Positions 626 through 61,134 of a stretch of DNA of 64,000 bases are shown here, in pieces. The notes under the pieces were generated by a model, which was not told where the DNA came from, ran no database searches, and worked only from the letters and a program-made list of their open reading frames with translations. Source of the stretch: Octopus vulgaris (taxonomy: Eukaryota); assembly GCA_951406725.2 (NCBI GenBank), contig OX597827.1, forward strand, positions 9,610,001-9,674,000. Reading direction: 5' to 3'. Position 1 is the first letter of the stretch, and each line of letters opens with the position of its first letter. Both the position numbers and the translations under genes were made by a program.

Positions 626-856
626 GGTGGCGAGCTGGCAGAAATGTTAGCACGCCGGGCGAAATGCGTAGCCGTATTTCGTCTGCTGTTACGTTCTGAG
701 TTCAAATTCCGCCGAGGTCGACTTTGCCTTTCATCCTTTCGAGGTGGATAAATTAAGTACCAGTTACGCACTGGGGTCGATGTAATCGACTTAATACCTA
801 TGTCTGTCCTTGTTTGTCCCCTCTGTGTTTAGCCCCTTGTGGGTCATAAAGAAATA
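626..856 (+). mobile_element. tRNA-derived SINE family A (Deu/Nin-domain-like), full length
   Basis: A-box-like GGCGAGCTGGCAG, B-box GAGTTCAAATTCC, central GCCTTTCATCCTTTCG.GGT.GATAAA..AAGTACCAG and 3' end AAAGAAATA. TSD aggt(t/c)ttagtgaat at 610-623 and 856-869. Confidence 0.9.
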
Positions 857-19545: not shown

Positions 19546-20004
19546 GTAAGTCCTAACACCCAGAAATTAGCACTGTTAGGCCCATTACCACTAAGGCTAC
19601 AAGTTGGTAGAGTCATCAGCATGCCAGACAAAATGCTTACTAGTCTTTCAACTGTCTTTACGTTCCGAGTTCAAATTCTGCCAAGGTTGATTTTGCTTTA
19701 TATTCTTTCAGGGTTGATGAAATAAGTTCATCTACCCATTAAGTACTCTGGTTGATATGATCAACCAGCCCCTCCCCCTCAAAAAAATACTGGCCCTGTG
19801 CCAAAATTTGAATGTGTAATTATTATTTACCATGATTATTATTAATGTGACATGCTGCCAGGCAAAATACATAGGAACATTTCTATTGACACTTTACATT
19901 CTGAGTTCAAATACTACTGAAGTTAACTTTTATCTTTTGGAGTCATTAATAAGTACCAGTTGAGAAATTAAGTTGATGTAATCAACACAGTACTTATATA
20001 TATA

Positions 20005-20234
20005 TAAGTTAAACAATGAAAATGAGTGGTCAACACTGCATTGGTGGAATTATCTTTTTTATTTGTGAATTAAGGCTACCATTGGTTTCATGTTAAGAAA
20101 GGTAGAGAATATCTTAGTGTCTTAATTTTTTTGAAGCCACTCACATGGAGAAAGTTGTTTGCCTCTGTTTTGGAAAACAGTCTTGCTTAGTTCATAGGAG
20201 TTCTCATAAATCCAAGTGAATAAAAAAAATGAAT
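20005..20234 (-). mobile_element. Copy of the PLE 3'-terminal ~230 bp, inserted in an old SINE
   Basis: Reverse complement of 7907-8134 with about six substitutions plus short homopolymer indels. Confidence 0.9.
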
Positions 20235-20881
20235 TGCTGGCCTTGTGCCAAAATTTGAAACCATTATTATCATAGTTTACAGGTAGTGAGCTGGTAGAGT
20301 TGCTAGCATGCTAGATGAAACACTTAGAGAGGTATTTCATATGTCTCTAAGTTCTAAGTTCAAATTTCACCAAGATCGACTTTGCCTTTCATCCATTCAG
20401 GGTCAATGAAATATGTACCTGTTGAGCACTGGGGTCAATGTAATCAACTTACCTGTTTCCCCATGTTGCTGGCCTTGTGCCAGAATTTGAAACCATTGTT
20501 ATTATTTTCTTTGTTTTGTTACAGTTAATCTAACATTGTTATTTATCCTAACTGATGAAAGTTTTGTGATGAATATCATAGAATTGTTGTGTTGGCAGCC
20601 TCCAGAGGAGTGAAACATGTAAGGGAACTTTTCCAGTAATTCAGATGACACTTTCAAAACAAATCACTTTATTCCATTGTGCTACTACTGCTCCCCAAAG
20701 TGGTGAAAAATCCCATTGTCCATATCAGTGAGCAATTCCTCTCTACTGCATACATGTATATCAAAATTAAATTTGGTCATTGGGAATTAACTATCGTTAT
20801 TATGGATACTGTTAAAGCAGCAAGCTCACAGAATCATTAGCATGTTAGACAAAATGCTTAGTGGTATTTCATCGGCGAAAA

Positions 20882-21113
20882 GGCGGCGAGCTGGCAGAAA
20901 CGTTAGCACGCCGGGCAAAATGCTTTGCGGTATTTTGTCTGCCGTTATGTTCTGAGTTCAAATTCCGCCGAGGTCGACTTTGTCTTTCATCCTTTCGGGG
21001 TCGATAAATTAAAGTACCAGTTATGCACTGGGGTCGATGTAATCGACTTAATACCTATGTCTGTCCTTGTTTGTCTCCTCTGTGTTTAGCCCCTTGTGGG
21101 TAGTAAAGAAATA
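20882..21113 (+). mobile_element. Young SINE family A nested in an older family-A-like SINE
   Basis: TSD ggtatttcatc at 20863-20873 and 21114-21124. The host continues on both sides. Confidence 0.9.
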
Positions 21114-21563
21114 GGTATTTCATCTGACTTTACATTCTGAATTCAAATACCATAGGGGTCAACTTTCCCTTTCGTCCTTTTGCGGTCAATAAAATAAGTA
21201 ACAGTCGAACCCTGGAGTCGATGTAGTCAACATACCCCTTTCCCTGGACTTGCTGGCTTTATACCAAAATTTGAAACCATCATTAGGGATATTGTTCAGG
21301 CAGTGGTCTTGCAGAATCACTTGACAGACAAAATTCTTCATGGTATTTCATTTGTCTTTATGTTCAGAGTTCAAATTCTGCCATGGTCAACTTTACCATT
21401 TATTCTTTCAGGGTCAATAAAGAGGTACCAGTTGAGTGCTCGGGTTGATGTAATTGATTATCCTCTCTGCCAAAATTTCAGGCCTTGTACCTATAGCAGA
21501 AAGGATTATTAGGGACATAGTTTCAATTCCTGGTTGAAACCATTTCACTTAACTCTGCTATAA

Positions 21564-23001: not shown

Positions 23002-23746
23002 TTCTTTAGCATTCAGATTGTTCTATCAAACGTAATATTTATTCACACATCGTCTTGAGTTTATTCTGCATTATCCTGTAGCCTTGAAATTTTGATTATG
23101 TGACTGTGTAATTTTTAGTCTGTGGAGGTGCGTGGCTTAGTGGTTAGGGTGTCAGCATCAAGATCATAAGATAGTGGTTTCGATTCCTGGACCAAGCGAC
23201 GCGTTGTGTTCTCAAGCAAAACACTTCATTTCACGTTGCTCCAGTCCGCGCAGCTGGCAAAAATGAGTAACGCTGCGATGGACTGGCGTCCTGTCCAGCT
23301 GGGGAACAAATACACCATTGAAACCAGGAAACCAGGCCTGTGAGCCTAACTAGGCTTTAAAAGGGCACATTTATTTATTTGTGGAGGCGCATGGCTTAGT
23401 GGTTAGAATGTCAGGACCATGATTATAAGATTGTGGTTTTGATTCCTGGACCGGGCGACACATTGTGTTCTTGAGCAAAACACTTCATTTCACGTTGCTC
23501 CAGTCCACTCAGCTTGCAAAAATGAGTAATGCTGTGATGGACTGGCGTCCCATCCAGTTGGGGAACACATACACCATAGAAACCAGGAAACTAGGCCCAT
23601 GAGCCTGGGTAGGCTTTGGAAAGGTGCATTTATTTTATTTTATTATACTTTTTAGTCTAACATTGTAGGTAGGTGTGAAATGCCTGCTTGCACTTAAAAC
23701 AGGAAGAATATTTTGGCTGGATATGACCAGTTTAAAAGCTAAAAGG
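23002..23746. mobile_element. piggyBac-type MITE family 2, interrupted by a SINE dimer
   Basis: 23002-23121 and 23649-23746 together match the reverse complement of 29181-29401. It ends AAAAGG-TTAA. Confidence 0.7.
23122..23648 (+). mobile_element. Head-to-tail dimer of a SINE (type-2 head, B2 tail)
   Basis: Two ~258 bp units starting at ~23122 and ~23381, within one TSD tttttagtct (23112-23121 and 23649-23658). Confidence 0.85.
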
Positions 23747-28351: not shown

Positions 28352-28950
28352 CACTTTTACTCTTTTACTCTTTTTATTTGTTTCAGTCATTTGACTGCGG
28401 CCATGCTGGAACACCGCCTTTAGTCGAGCAAATCAACCCCGGGACTTATTCTTTTGTAAGCCCAGTACTTATTCTATCGGTCTCTTTTGCCGAACCGCTA
28501 AGTGACGGGGACGTAAACACACCAGCATCGGTTGTCAAGCAATGCTTGGGGGACAAACACACACACACAAACACACACACATACACACACATATATTTAT
28601 ATATACACATATATATGACAGGCTTCTTTCAGTTTCCGTCTACCAAATCCACTCACAAGGCATTGGTTGGCCCGGGGCTATAGCAGAAGACACTTGCCCA
28701 AGATGTCACGCAGTGGGACTGAACCCGGAACCATGTGGTTGGTTAGCAAGCTACTTACCACACAGCCACTCCTACACCTATAATATATATGACAGGCTTC
28801 TTTCAGTTTCCGTCTACCAAATCCACTCACAAGGCATTGGTCGGCCCGGGGCTATAGCAGAATACACTTGCCCAAGATGCCACGCAGTGGGACTGAACCC
28901 ACAACCATGTGGTTGGTTAGTAAGCTACTTACCACACAGCCACACCTGCA
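28352..28950 (-). mobile_element. SINE family C with a duplicated head module
   Basis: The head occurs twice (~28617-28778 and ~28790-28950), separated by a short (TA)n, and there is a single body and tail. Confidence 0.9.
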
Positions 28951-32346: not shown

Positions 32347-32577
32347 TATTTCTTTACTACCCACAAGGGGCTAAACACAGAGGGGACAAACAAGGACTGA
32401 CATAGGTATTAAGTCGATTACATCGACCCCAGTGTTGAACTGGTACTTAATTTATCGACCCCGAAAGGATGAAAGGCAAAGTCAACCTTGGCGGAATTTG
32501 AACTCAGAACGTAACGGCAGGCAAAATACGGCTACGCATTTCGCCCGGTGTGCTAACGTTTCTGCCAGCTCGCTGCC
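32347..32577 (-). mobile_element. SINE family A, full length
   Basis: TSD ttttgagtaacc at 32335-32346 and 32580-32591. Confidence 0.9.
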
Positions 32578-39924: not shown

Positions 39925-40155
39925 GGTGGCGAGCTGGCAGAAACGTTAGCACGCCGGGCGAAATGCTTAGCAGTATTTCATCTGTCGCTACATTCTGAGT
40001 TCAAATTCCGCCGAGGGTGACTTTGCCTTTCATCCTTTCGGGGTCGATAAATTAAGTACCAGTTATGCACTGGGGTCGATGTAATCGACTTAACCCCTTT
40101 GTCTGTCCTTGTTTGTCCCCTCTATGTTTAGCCCCTGGTGGGCAATAAAGAAATA
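39925..40155 (+). mobile_element. SINE family A, full length
   Basis: Family A motifs, with the flanking repeat tatgagtaatt. Confidence 0.9.
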
Positions 40156-50436: not shown

Positions 50437-51715
50437 ATATATATACATACATTTATATATACATACATACATGCATACACATTTATGTATGTATATATAC
50501 ATGCGTACGTACATCTGTATAACCAGAGAGAATGAGAGAGAGAAAGAAAGAGAGAGAGAGAGAGAGATGGGGAATTGTGCAATAAAGATGCAAAAATATC
50601 AGGGTGAAAAAAACCCAGTTTATTCCAAAATTGAACCTTATCTAAAAAGGAACATAATAATTGGATAGGCTGATTTCTTCCTGAAAATAATAATAATAAT
50701 AATTAAAAAAAAAGAACAAGAAAAGAAATCTAATTCTTCCAGAACAATTAGATGTTGCTTCATTATTTTTGTAGTGAAAAAGACACAAAAAATACATCAG
50801 CAATTCAATAAAAACACAGAAAAAGAAAAAAAAAATAGCTAGTATAAAAGAAAAAAAAATGATGGTAGATTTTTGAAGAGTAAAATCTAAACTGGAAAAC
50901 ATTTGTGATTTATTTCAATATTTACTCGAGGAGTGGATGATCTGACGTATCAAGTGGTCTAAAAGAGGAGATCAACTTTGTCAGAGTAATGTTGTAAATT
51001 GTGTCAACAATAGAGTTTTGTTGTAAACAAGTTCAGATTTCAGATGTCAGAGAAAAGTAGACAGTAGCAGTGAAAAAAAAGTCAATAATGAAGTTAAGAA
51101 GAGTAAATAGTAGTAGGTTATGTTGGGTCGCACAGCTAGTCACTCTACAAAGTATACATTCATGTGGAAAGAATCCTTTTGATAGAGAAGAAGAACGATG
51201 ACATTATGTATGAAGAGGTCAATATATAACAAAATCAGAAAATAATTGCAAATTGGTGATTCAGACTTATATATTCAAGAGAAAAAGAGAGAAAGAGACA
51301 GAGAGAGAGTGAGTGAGTGAGAGAGAGGGAGAAAGATAGTAAAGAAAAAAAAACTGAGGCAAAAAATGTCAATAGCTTGAACAGAACGGTTAGTTTGAGG
51401 AACATATCTGGCAGACAGACGAATAGAAAATAGAGCTTGACTAAGAACTAGATAATACATACAGATTGGAATTGGCGCAGCAGATACTGACAAACCTGAA
51501 GTAAAGAGCTGATCAATTGAGAGAGAGAGACAGAGAGACAGAGAGAGACAGAGAGAGGGGGGAAGGAAAGAGACAAAAAGAGAAAAAGAGATAGAGATAA
51601 AGAAATAGACTACTTTGAGTGAAATTTACCAAATGAAATAACTACACATGATGAACTCCTGGGGGAAACATAATATCATAAACGATTGTAGAAATGATAT
51701 AACAAAGTATCATCA

Positions 51716-52873
51716 GGCGAGCTGGCAGAAACGTTAGCACGCCGGGCGAAATGCTTAGCGGTATTTCGTCTGCGTTACATTGTGAGTTCAAATTCCGCCG
51801 AGGTCGACTTTGCCTTTCATCCTTTCGGGGTCGATAAAAATTAAGTACCAGTTACGAACTGGCGTCGATGTAATCGACTTAATACCTATGTCTGTCCTTG
51901 TTTGTTCCCTCTGTGTTTAGCCCCTTGTGGGTAATAAAGAAATAGGTATCTCGTCTGCCGGTACGTTGTGAGTTCAAATTCCGCTGAGGTCGACTTTGCC
52001 TTTCATCCTTTCGGGGTCGATAAAAATTAAGTACCAGTTACGAACTGGGGTCGATGTAATCGACTTAATACCTATGTCTGTCCTTGTTTGTTCCCTCTGT
52101 GTTTAGCCCCTTGTGGGTAATAAAGAAATAGGTATCTCATCTGCCGCTACGTTGTGAGTTCAAATTCCGCTGAGGTCGACTTTGCCTTTCATCCTTTCGG
52201 GGTCGATAAAAATTAAGTACCAGTTACGAACTGGCGTCGATGTAATCGACTTAATACCTATGTCTGTCCTTGTTTGTTCCCTCTGTGTTTAGCCCCTTGT
52301 GGGTAATAAAGAAATAGGTATTTCGTCTGCTGCTACGTTGTGAGTTCAAATTCCGCTGAGGTCGACTTTGCCTTTCATCCTTTCGGGGTCGATAAAAACT
52401 AAGTACCAGTTACGAACTGGGGTCGATGTAATCGACTTAATACCTATGTCTGTCCTTGTTTGTTCCCTCTGTGTTTAGCCCCTTGTGGGTAATAAAGAAA
52501 TAGGTATTTCGTCTGCTGCTATGTTCTGAGTTCAAATTTCGCCGAGGTCGACTTTGCCTTTCATCCTTTCGGGGTCGATAAAAATTAAGTACCAGTTACG
52601 AACTGGGGTCGATGTAATCGACTTAATACCTATGTCTGTCCTTGTTTGTTCCCTCTGTGTTTAGCCCCTTGTGGGTAATAAAGAAATAGGTATTTCGTCT
52701 GCTGCTACGTTCTGAGTTCAAATTCCGCCGAGGTCGACTTTGCCTTTCATCCTTTCGGGGTCGATAAATTAAGTACCAGTTACAAACTGGGGTCGATGTA
52801 ATCGACTTAATACCTATGTCTTGTCCTTGTTTGTTCCCTCTGTGTTTAGCCCCTTGTGGGTAATAAAGAAATA
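51716..52873 (+). repeat. SINE family A-derived tandem array: one head plus 6 x 186 bp units
   Basis: The B-box GAGTTCAAATT recurs at 51784, 51970, 52156, 52342, 52528 and 52714. Probable outer TSD gtatca(t/c)cag at 51707-51716 and 52875-52884. Confidence 0.95.
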
Positions 52874-53116
52874 GGTATCACCAGTCTCTGAGCCGACTCA
52901 ACTTTCATCTGTCTCAGCAGACTGAAAAGGAATCAGTCATAAATCAGCTTCTTCATTCTCTTATTGATTTATTGGCTTCAATCGTGTCATTAAACTATGA
53001 CCATATTTGGGCATTGCCTTCATTCATATGAATCTCAGTATTAATTTAAGATTTGAACTTAGTTTAGCAACCACTATATATATTGAATGGCTAGTTATCA
53101 TTTTTTTTTACATAAA

Positions 53117-57849: not shown

Positions 57850-58081
57850 TAATTCTTTATTGCCCACAAGGGGCTAAACATAGAGGAGACAAACAAGGAT
57901 GGACAAAGGGATTCAGTTGATTACATCGACCCCAGTGCGTAACTGGTACTTTATTTATCGACCACTTAAAGGATGAAAGGCAAAGTTGACCTTGGCAGAA
58001 TTTGAACTCAGATCGTAATGGCAGACGAAATACCGCTAAGCATTTCACCTGGCATACTAATGTTTCTACCAGCTCGCCGCC
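57850..58081 (-). mobile_element. SINE family A inserted in the RTE
   Basis: TSD tgacatgtata. Confidence 0.88.
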
Positions 58082-60902: not shown

Positions 60903-61134
60903 TATTTCTTTATTGCCCACAAGGGGCTAAACACAGAGGGGGATAAACAAGGACAGACAAAGGGATTAAGTCGATTACATCGACCCCAGTGCATAACTGG
61001 TGCTTAATTTATTGACCCCAAAAGGATGAGGGGAAAAGTCGACCTCGGCGGAATTTGAACTCAGAACGTAATGGCAGACGAAATACTGCTATGCATTTCG
61101 CCCGGTGTGCTAACATTTCTGCCAGCTCACCGCC
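60903..61134 (-). mobile_element. SINE family A, full length
   Basis: 17 bp TSD tagctccagcagtttct. Confidence 0.9.

Follow-up and report, generated by a model that had tools for sequence, protein, structure and literature searches.

Introduction

In crocodilians, a target preference of the three SINE families SINEU-1, -2 and -3 has been ascribed to Tx1-Mar LINEs, as described in the portions of the report used here (PMC4494074). The octopus SINE described below shares with these families a target preference with an ascribed Tx1 partner, a preference that is partial in some of the SINEU families (23% and 13% of copies target-flanked in those portions), and tandem insertion at the target. The SINEU target, however, is another element (Mariner-N4_AMi), and tandem SINEU copies have a TSD between them and retain their heads (PMC4494074, same portions), whereas the octopus SINE carries the motif within itself, has most of its insertions at unrelated GGTA sites and forms dimers with a single head. 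For R1 and R2, an RNA 5′ end homologous to the target leads to seamless junctions by cDNA annealing, and otherwise to extra bases (PMC2718515, in the part consulted). The same correspondence is seen here, homology going with seamless junctions and its absence with extra bases, although R1 and R2 are autonomous rDNA elements, while the octopus SINE is a passenger whose homology arises from being its own target.

Two other systems are also related. Squamate SINE-derived satellites are tandem repeats of part of a SINE that expanded locally (PMC10702118, in the part consulted); unlike them, the seeding dimer in the octopus has a fixed junction set by the insertion motif, and the arrays are short and dispersed, with 2-7 units in our sample of fetched loci. 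ZmSINE2 and ZmSINE3 with LINE1-1_ZM are L1-clade LINE/SINE pairs of plants and algae with a common structured tail, and the consulted text of that source describes no self-targeting (PMC3472496). The octopus SINE is similar in that its 3′ end may be shared with an L1/Tx1-type LINE, its tail aligning in part to LINEs that are not its exact partner. Surveys of octopus repeats list SINEs and L1-Tx1 elements, with nothing on targets or dimers in the parts consulted (PMC13282606, PMC8967140), and we found no description of a self-targeting SINE in our literature searches; Ohshima and Okada 1994, Repbase, SINEBase and supplements may describe dimeric forms.

The self-targeting reported here is genuine and amounts to a variant of Tx1-type target bias. 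The present analysis contributes its motif, a comparison of sense and antisense sites as a control, the relative ages of the parts of dimers and a dependence on subfamily. It bears on how the 5′ ends of non-LTR insertions are joined and on the origin of SINE tandem repeats, since the family supplies natural insertion events by the tens of thousands together with internal controls, namely a homologous sense site against a non-homologous antisense site, and a subfamily with a second motif.

A young SINE nested in an older relative

Within the window (the whole stretch of 64,000 nucleotides that was analysed, from Octopus vulgaris contig OX597827.1), a young SINE copy interrupts an older relative (Table 1; element positions are numbered from the first G of the head). 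As the first-pass annotation had proposed, the insert is bounded by an exact 11-bp TSD, which begins at host position 48, the very position at which the units of the array elsewhere in the window are joined. The 3′ part of the host is 74.6% identical to the young copy and has 11 private changes in 84 sites, compared with 0 in the insert; between host and young copy, 127 of 174 aligned positions are identical. Extra bases like those at the 5′ junction of the insert are present at many other 5′ junctions of this SINE. In a search for an empty-site allele or ortholog, where repeats swamped the signal, one public run under the same species label contained the 5′ junction of this locus exactly. At least five old relatives lie around the locus (19593-21500) in the same orientation, several of them head to tail, and old tails seem to attract further copies.

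Table 1. SINE features of the nested locus and of the remaining young loci in the window.
Feature	Position	Strand	Remark
Outer TSD of old host SINE, left copy	20799..20813	+	13/15 bases match 21282-21296
5′ part of old host SINE (about positions 1-47)	20814..20862	+	~75% identity to young heads
Inner TSD GGTATTTCATC, left copy	20863..20873	+	host positions 48-58
Eight extra bases GGCGAAAA	20874..20881	+	5′ junction of insert
Young SINE copy, 232 bp	20882..21113	+	'U' tail (T variant), poly(A)-less, terminal AAAGAAATA
Inner TSD, right copy	21114..21124	+	exact match to left copy
3′ part of old host SINE	21125..21281	+	older and different tail
Outer TSD of host, right copy	21282..21296	+	
Solo young copy	626..856	+	T tail, GGT target
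Solo young copy	32347..32577	-	T tail, GGT target
Solo copy	39925..40155	+	C tail, non-GGT target
Solo copy	57853..58081	-	C tail, non-GGT target
Solo copy	60903..61134	-	C tail, AGAAA target
Array	51716..52873	+	one head and six head-less units joined at position 48

The SINE is 231 bp long, non-coding, high-copy and flanked by TSDs of 11-23 bp, in keeping with a tRNA-derived SINE (SINE2). An exact 32-base tail pattern has 54,122 matches genome-wide (2.8 Gb, 227 contigs), and GGT follows 35,326 of them, a figure in which solo ends and tail-to-unit junctions are counted together. Two main tails are present, 'U', which ends in AAAGAAATA, and 'V', which is older and has AT-rich TSDs. ARAGORN found 0 tRNA genes in the head and Rfam gave 0 matches; A- and B-box-like motifs were spotted there by eye only, and the element may correspond to a named octopus SINE (OK/OR1/OR2) and resemble the Nin-DC or Deu type. 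In a common head variant (30/83 solo U copies; for example, those at 626 and 32347), C replaces G at position 48, and this variant is therefore without the target motif in its own head. Near-exclusive site specificity like that of SINEU-3 is not seen, with 43 of 56 elements being solo among loci that were not picked by tail.

Solo copies prefer N|GGTA(T) targets

From the sequence of the window alone, GGT had been noted directly after four of the seven young loci (626, 20882, 32347 and the end of 51716), and this count stands; at a background of 0.011, it corresponds to p=5e-7. The remaining three (39925, 58081 and 61134) are not followed by GGT. The tails divide along the same line, with T in the loci followed by GGT and C in those that are not.

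We have, as had been suggested, built a logo of TSD 5′ ends from a sample that comprises the window and 180 fetched loci (1.45 Mb). Of these loci, 81 were selected by their exact tail, another 90 through an exact match to a 58-base head (a selection that enriches the youngest subfamily) and 9 flank the window. In all, 140 solo or array ends were screened, the TSD being located with positions 5 onward only; 81 had a TSD, 59 had none by this rule, and 75 remained after six low-complexity cases were dropped. The predicted GGT bias is present in this sample. The upstream TSD copy has G in 53, G in 59, T in 59, A in 62 and T in 44 of the 75 cases at successive positions, and begins with GGT in 41/75, compared with a background of 1.1%. 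Of the ATA|GGT preference put forward at first, the ATA does not survive, since it precedes the TSD in 1/75 targets and is the element's own end; at position -1, A is not enriched (22/75, p=0.71) and G is depleted (4/75, p=0.002). Solo targets resemble the SINE's own site only to about +6 or +7, and beyond the motif C is found at +8 in 9/75 and G at +9 in 15/75.

A quite different source of GGT would be the element RNA itself, if read-through of an array past AAAGAAAUA supplied the bases and microhomology then primed reverse transcription with no endonuclease preference. The few ends that have GGT downstream only (L006, L030, L038) would fit such a source, as would the large number of exact tails followed by GGT given above. 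Yet GGT is present in both TSD copies in 37/75 cases, and mismatches between the copies are not one-sided, either at positions 1-4 (16 vs 10, p=0.33) or at positions 5-13 (6 vs 4); where the copies differ, neither is nearer to the motif. The TSD also begins at a fixed base, without extending into the A of the tail. For solo copies, the GGT in both copies and the symmetric mismatches largely refute an RNA-supplied GGT, and we consider this explanation very improbable overall. The logo of the upstream copy, the lack of ATA and the symmetric mismatches therefore define the target as N|GGTA(T) with a fixed 3′ end, and the GGT preference belongs to the target and not to the element. The motif, the fixed 3′ end and the TSD lengths are direct observations, and a preference of this kind, together with an invariant 3′ end and a TSD, is one mark of a Tx1-mobilised SINE.

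It is quite probable that a Tx1-type endonuclease nicks at GGTA. Its cut in the bottom strand would lie immediately to the left of this motif, and the terminal A of the poly(A)-less tail would be where reverse transcription begins.

The target depends on subfamily

The preference had been attributed to the SINE generally, and this holds only in part. GGT follows 89/150 ends with T tails (T at 220), compared with 7/50 ends with C tails (p=1e-8), and it is mainly a trait of the younger subfamilies. We reject the idea that one base in the tail determines the target, since linked subfamily markers predict GGT equally well or better; the tail base is still associated with GGT in five of six strata. 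Among T-tailed ends, GGT is found in 54/70 with A at 171 and in 29/78 with C at 171. C tails are older, with 0.041 private changes per site, compared with 0.022. Decay alone is insufficient to account for the spread in GGT, and therefore the subfamilies probably differ because the carrier, or its specificity, changed with time.

Copies with a CAA tail have AGAAA targets in 9/34 cases. A second head-less junction class is present at AGAAA near head position 15, in 6/45 units with CAA tails, compared with 2/316 with other tails, and all 7/7 checked AGAAA-junction cases that were anchored on the head have a single head.

Nested copies that keep their heads

The head of the SINE itself satisfies the target preference at position 48, as had been noticed from the window. 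Nested insertions were counted genome-wide by a 5′ junction pattern (the exact 11-base site, 1-12 bases and a 15-base head). There are 158 such head-keeping junctions at position 48 in the sense direction, 132 at the antisense GGTAC and 6 at a SINE site that lacks GGTA; a few of the matches are tandem head repeats at one locus, and the site is found again behind the tail in 24/30 inspected matches. Nesting at both GGTA sites is thus directly observed, and the expected enrichment of nested positions is evident against the non-GGTA control and absent against the antisense site. With 111,574 exact sense sites genome-wide, the rough head-keeping rates per site are 0.6% for sense, 0.2-0.6% for antisense and 0.3% for generic GGTAT sites. 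These rates are similar, and therefore the nested form seen at 20815 is recurrent but needs only the motif. At unrelated or antisense GGTAC sites, the 5′ end would be joined without homology, and the outcome would be a complete copy flanked by a TSD, such as that at 20863-21124.

Some nested copies have further peculiarities. SINE copies at the antisense GGTAC of another copy form inverted pairs in L148 and L180. The head plus TSD (64-65 bp) is tandemly repeated at nested insertions, eight times at G000:C10:17,996,023-17,996,506 and also in L209. At L309:159-277 (G000:C13), a complete 5S rRNA sequence (105.7 bits in Rfam) is joined to a full SINE copy, and this chimera has been inserted jointly at position 48 of another SINE copy.

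Dimers with a single head

Among loci not picked by tail, 13/56 U elements are followed by another unit that begins at position 48, with a single head, compared with 3 unselected head-keeping nests against 142 U elements. Head-less dimers at position 48 outnumber head-keeping nests by a factor of roughly ten. The shares of head-less junctions were taken from fetched loci and not from a direct genome-wide count of tail-to-unit junctions; when scaled up, they amount to about 30,000 elements, or ~27 times the generic per-site rate, as a rough product of small counts (13/56, 5/43). Around whole dimers there is a single outer TSD, which corresponds in type to the last unit. As a warning for repeat annotators, the many 'dimeric' consensus sequences of this SINE probably arose by insertion and do not represent families.

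The age order within dimers is directly observed. In U-V dimers, divergence is 0.051 in the last unit vs 0.027 in the first (14 up, 4 down, n=23, p=0.002), and in U-U dimers it is 0.024 vs 0.014 (19 up, 6 down, n=34, p=0.006); true nests go in the same direction (0.079 vs 0.014, n=19). Private changes in the heads amount to 27/608 in U-V dimers, 23/608 in solo V and 63/2656 in solo U copies (p=0.008), and hence the heads of U-V dimers are diverged like those of solo V copies and beyond those of solo U copies. The two partners of U-U dimers differ about as much as random copies do (0.081 vs 0.085, n=36), with 4/36 pairs being near-identical. Heads and last units that are older than the first unit favour insertion in place with loss of one head, which we infer with good confidence to be the main source of dimers. 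Self-targeting accordingly explains most dimers, as had been proposed for nesting, although it does not make head-keeping nests commoner at position 48 than at the antisense site.

Read-through masters would offer another route, in which pol III transcribes from an inserted head through the tail into the 3′ half of the host, and the dimeric RNA is re-transposed whole or recombined into solo copies. The heads of dimers, as diverged as old hosts, are at odds with this, and so is the barely correlated divergence of first and last units (rho 0.19-0.29). The single outer TSD around whole dimers would be expected of it, and the first unit is indeed donor-type at positions 61-63 in 15/19 cases and host-type in 2/19. 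Some dimer heads also carry the donor-type variant (3/19 U-V, 5/23 U-U), and the mutations of a founder would look private when the sample is small. In multimers, however, the donor-type head variant is rarer (10/59) than in solo copies (30/83, p=0.014). With the age order, the old heads and the rarer donor-type variant, read-through masters are weakened as the main reading, and we regard them as quite improbable.

The simplest seamless model, in which the first unit keeps the whole TSD of the host, was rejected, since the expected host signal is absent both at 61-63 (2/19) and at 48-60. First units share four host variants at 48-60 with 1.9 expected (p=0.13), and with no sharing beyond chance, the annealed stretch has left no direct trace. 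The dimers agree with the placement of a young unit in an old copy and a crossover at some point within positions 1-60. Last units have fewer changes than expected at positions 49-60 (3/186, against 11/188 for solo V, p=0.054), an observation for which site selection or an RNA extension would account equally well.

The main rival holds that the Tx1 endonuclease recognises a long, head-specific site, the spare head being lost at insertion or by later deletion between heads. It could account for the excess of head-less dimers over the generic GGTAT rate (~27-fold) and for the unusually intact positions 49-60, and the Tx1-Mar/SINEU case is a precedent in the portions of PMC4494074 used here. A long site is nevertheless hard to reconcile with solo targets that match the SINE's site only to about +6 or +7, and with a head-keeping rate at position 48 that is about the same as at antisense and generic sites. 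An inspection of 35 of the 54 matches to interrupted exact position-48 sites revealed no LINE and no LINE 5′ junction. For these reasons, we consider a long head-specific site unlikely.

We instead find it reasonably probable, as a joint explanation, that younger subfamilies insert preferentially at N|GGTA(T) after a Tx1-type nick, and that annealing of the new cDNA to the matching host head removes the spare head in most insertions into another copy. At position 48 of another copy, annealing between the cDNA and the host head would give a seamless head-unit-unit dimer, and it would raise the success of the event by about an order of magnitude or more above what the motif alone predicts. We lean slightly towards such homology-assisted completion as the cause of the position-48 excess, and the CAA-tail/AGAAA junction class counts as a natural replicate for this explanation.

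A wider reading, offered tentatively, is a self-reinforcing loop, in which the shared head may boost the integration of cDNA into other copies and produce tens of thousands of seamless dimers, while subfamilies switched carriers or targets (AGAAA or AT-rich, then GGTA) and each head motif set its own junction class. If true, this would amount to homology-boosted retrotransposition of a passenger on the scale of a genome, and would lead directly from a SINE to a tandem repeat.

Arrays

Self-targeting had also been suggested as the explanation for arrays, which stands for the seeding of dimers and fails for the growth of the array at 51.7 kb. Its six head-less units are 185-186 bp long, each beginning at position 48, and an outer TSD, GTATCA(T/C)CA, is found at 51707-51715 and 52875-52883. 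The units have in common an extra AA that is seen in 0/209 other loci, together with a pair of variants that occurs jointly in no other locus, and their first bases grade from one subfamily into another. Because the units carry locally private variants, the growth of this array is ascribed to local duplication instead of six insertions, which points to a seeding dimer followed by local expansion. The motif would be kept at the dimer junction, so that re-insertion or unequal exchange would be possible there, as in this array.

Local tandem expansion of part of a SINE, the hallmark of SINE-derived satellites, is found in the 51.7 kb array and in L064, L070 and L076, and not in most dimers. Other arrays are mixed: units are 8-17% apart in L028, L050 and L067, as repeated insertion predicts, and runs of identical units are present in L056 and L076. 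Near-tandem pairs of other repeat families are also present in the window, at 23113-23640 and 28609-28947, with periods of 259 and 174.

The tail and its LINE relatives

The SINE tail has no poly(A). Its last 54 bases give a local alignment with the 3′ end of a LINE whose domains are RVT_1 and zf-RVT, a layout by which it may be called Tx1-type. TATC follows 4/4 copies of this related LINE family that have the tail. A second family with a Tx1-type tail aligns over 55 bases and more closely, and its targets are mixed; neither family is the exact partner. The partner had been expected to be identifiable by the shared 3′ tail, and this search yielded only related Tx1-type tails.

Several routes to the partner were followed. 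Tails without a SINE body, sought in the fetched DNA, gave no partner LINE. A LINE-type tail followed by the site had 27 matches, and 20/20 inspected were SINE variants; a U tail with foreign upstream bases had 82 matches, and 12/12 inspected were SINEs. Relatives of a short Tx1-type tail, at 25 loci and in 20 longer stretches, had mixed, mostly purine-rich targets and no intact RT beside the tail, and a protein search for the partner returned a single abundant LINE family. In these genome searches, no LINE with the SINE tail or at the SINE site was found, nor one that targets GGTA.

Two observations on the LINEs can be added. A poly(A)-less Tx1-type LINE is abundant, with 25,967 first-look candidates and several ORFs over 1,100 aa (L292, L174, L155, L062), and it is likely a (TATC)n-targeting family. 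At L234-L244 (G000:C21:42,753,776-42,757,475), a tandem array is present, the 144-bp units of which correspond to the 3′ end of a family with a Tx1-type tail.
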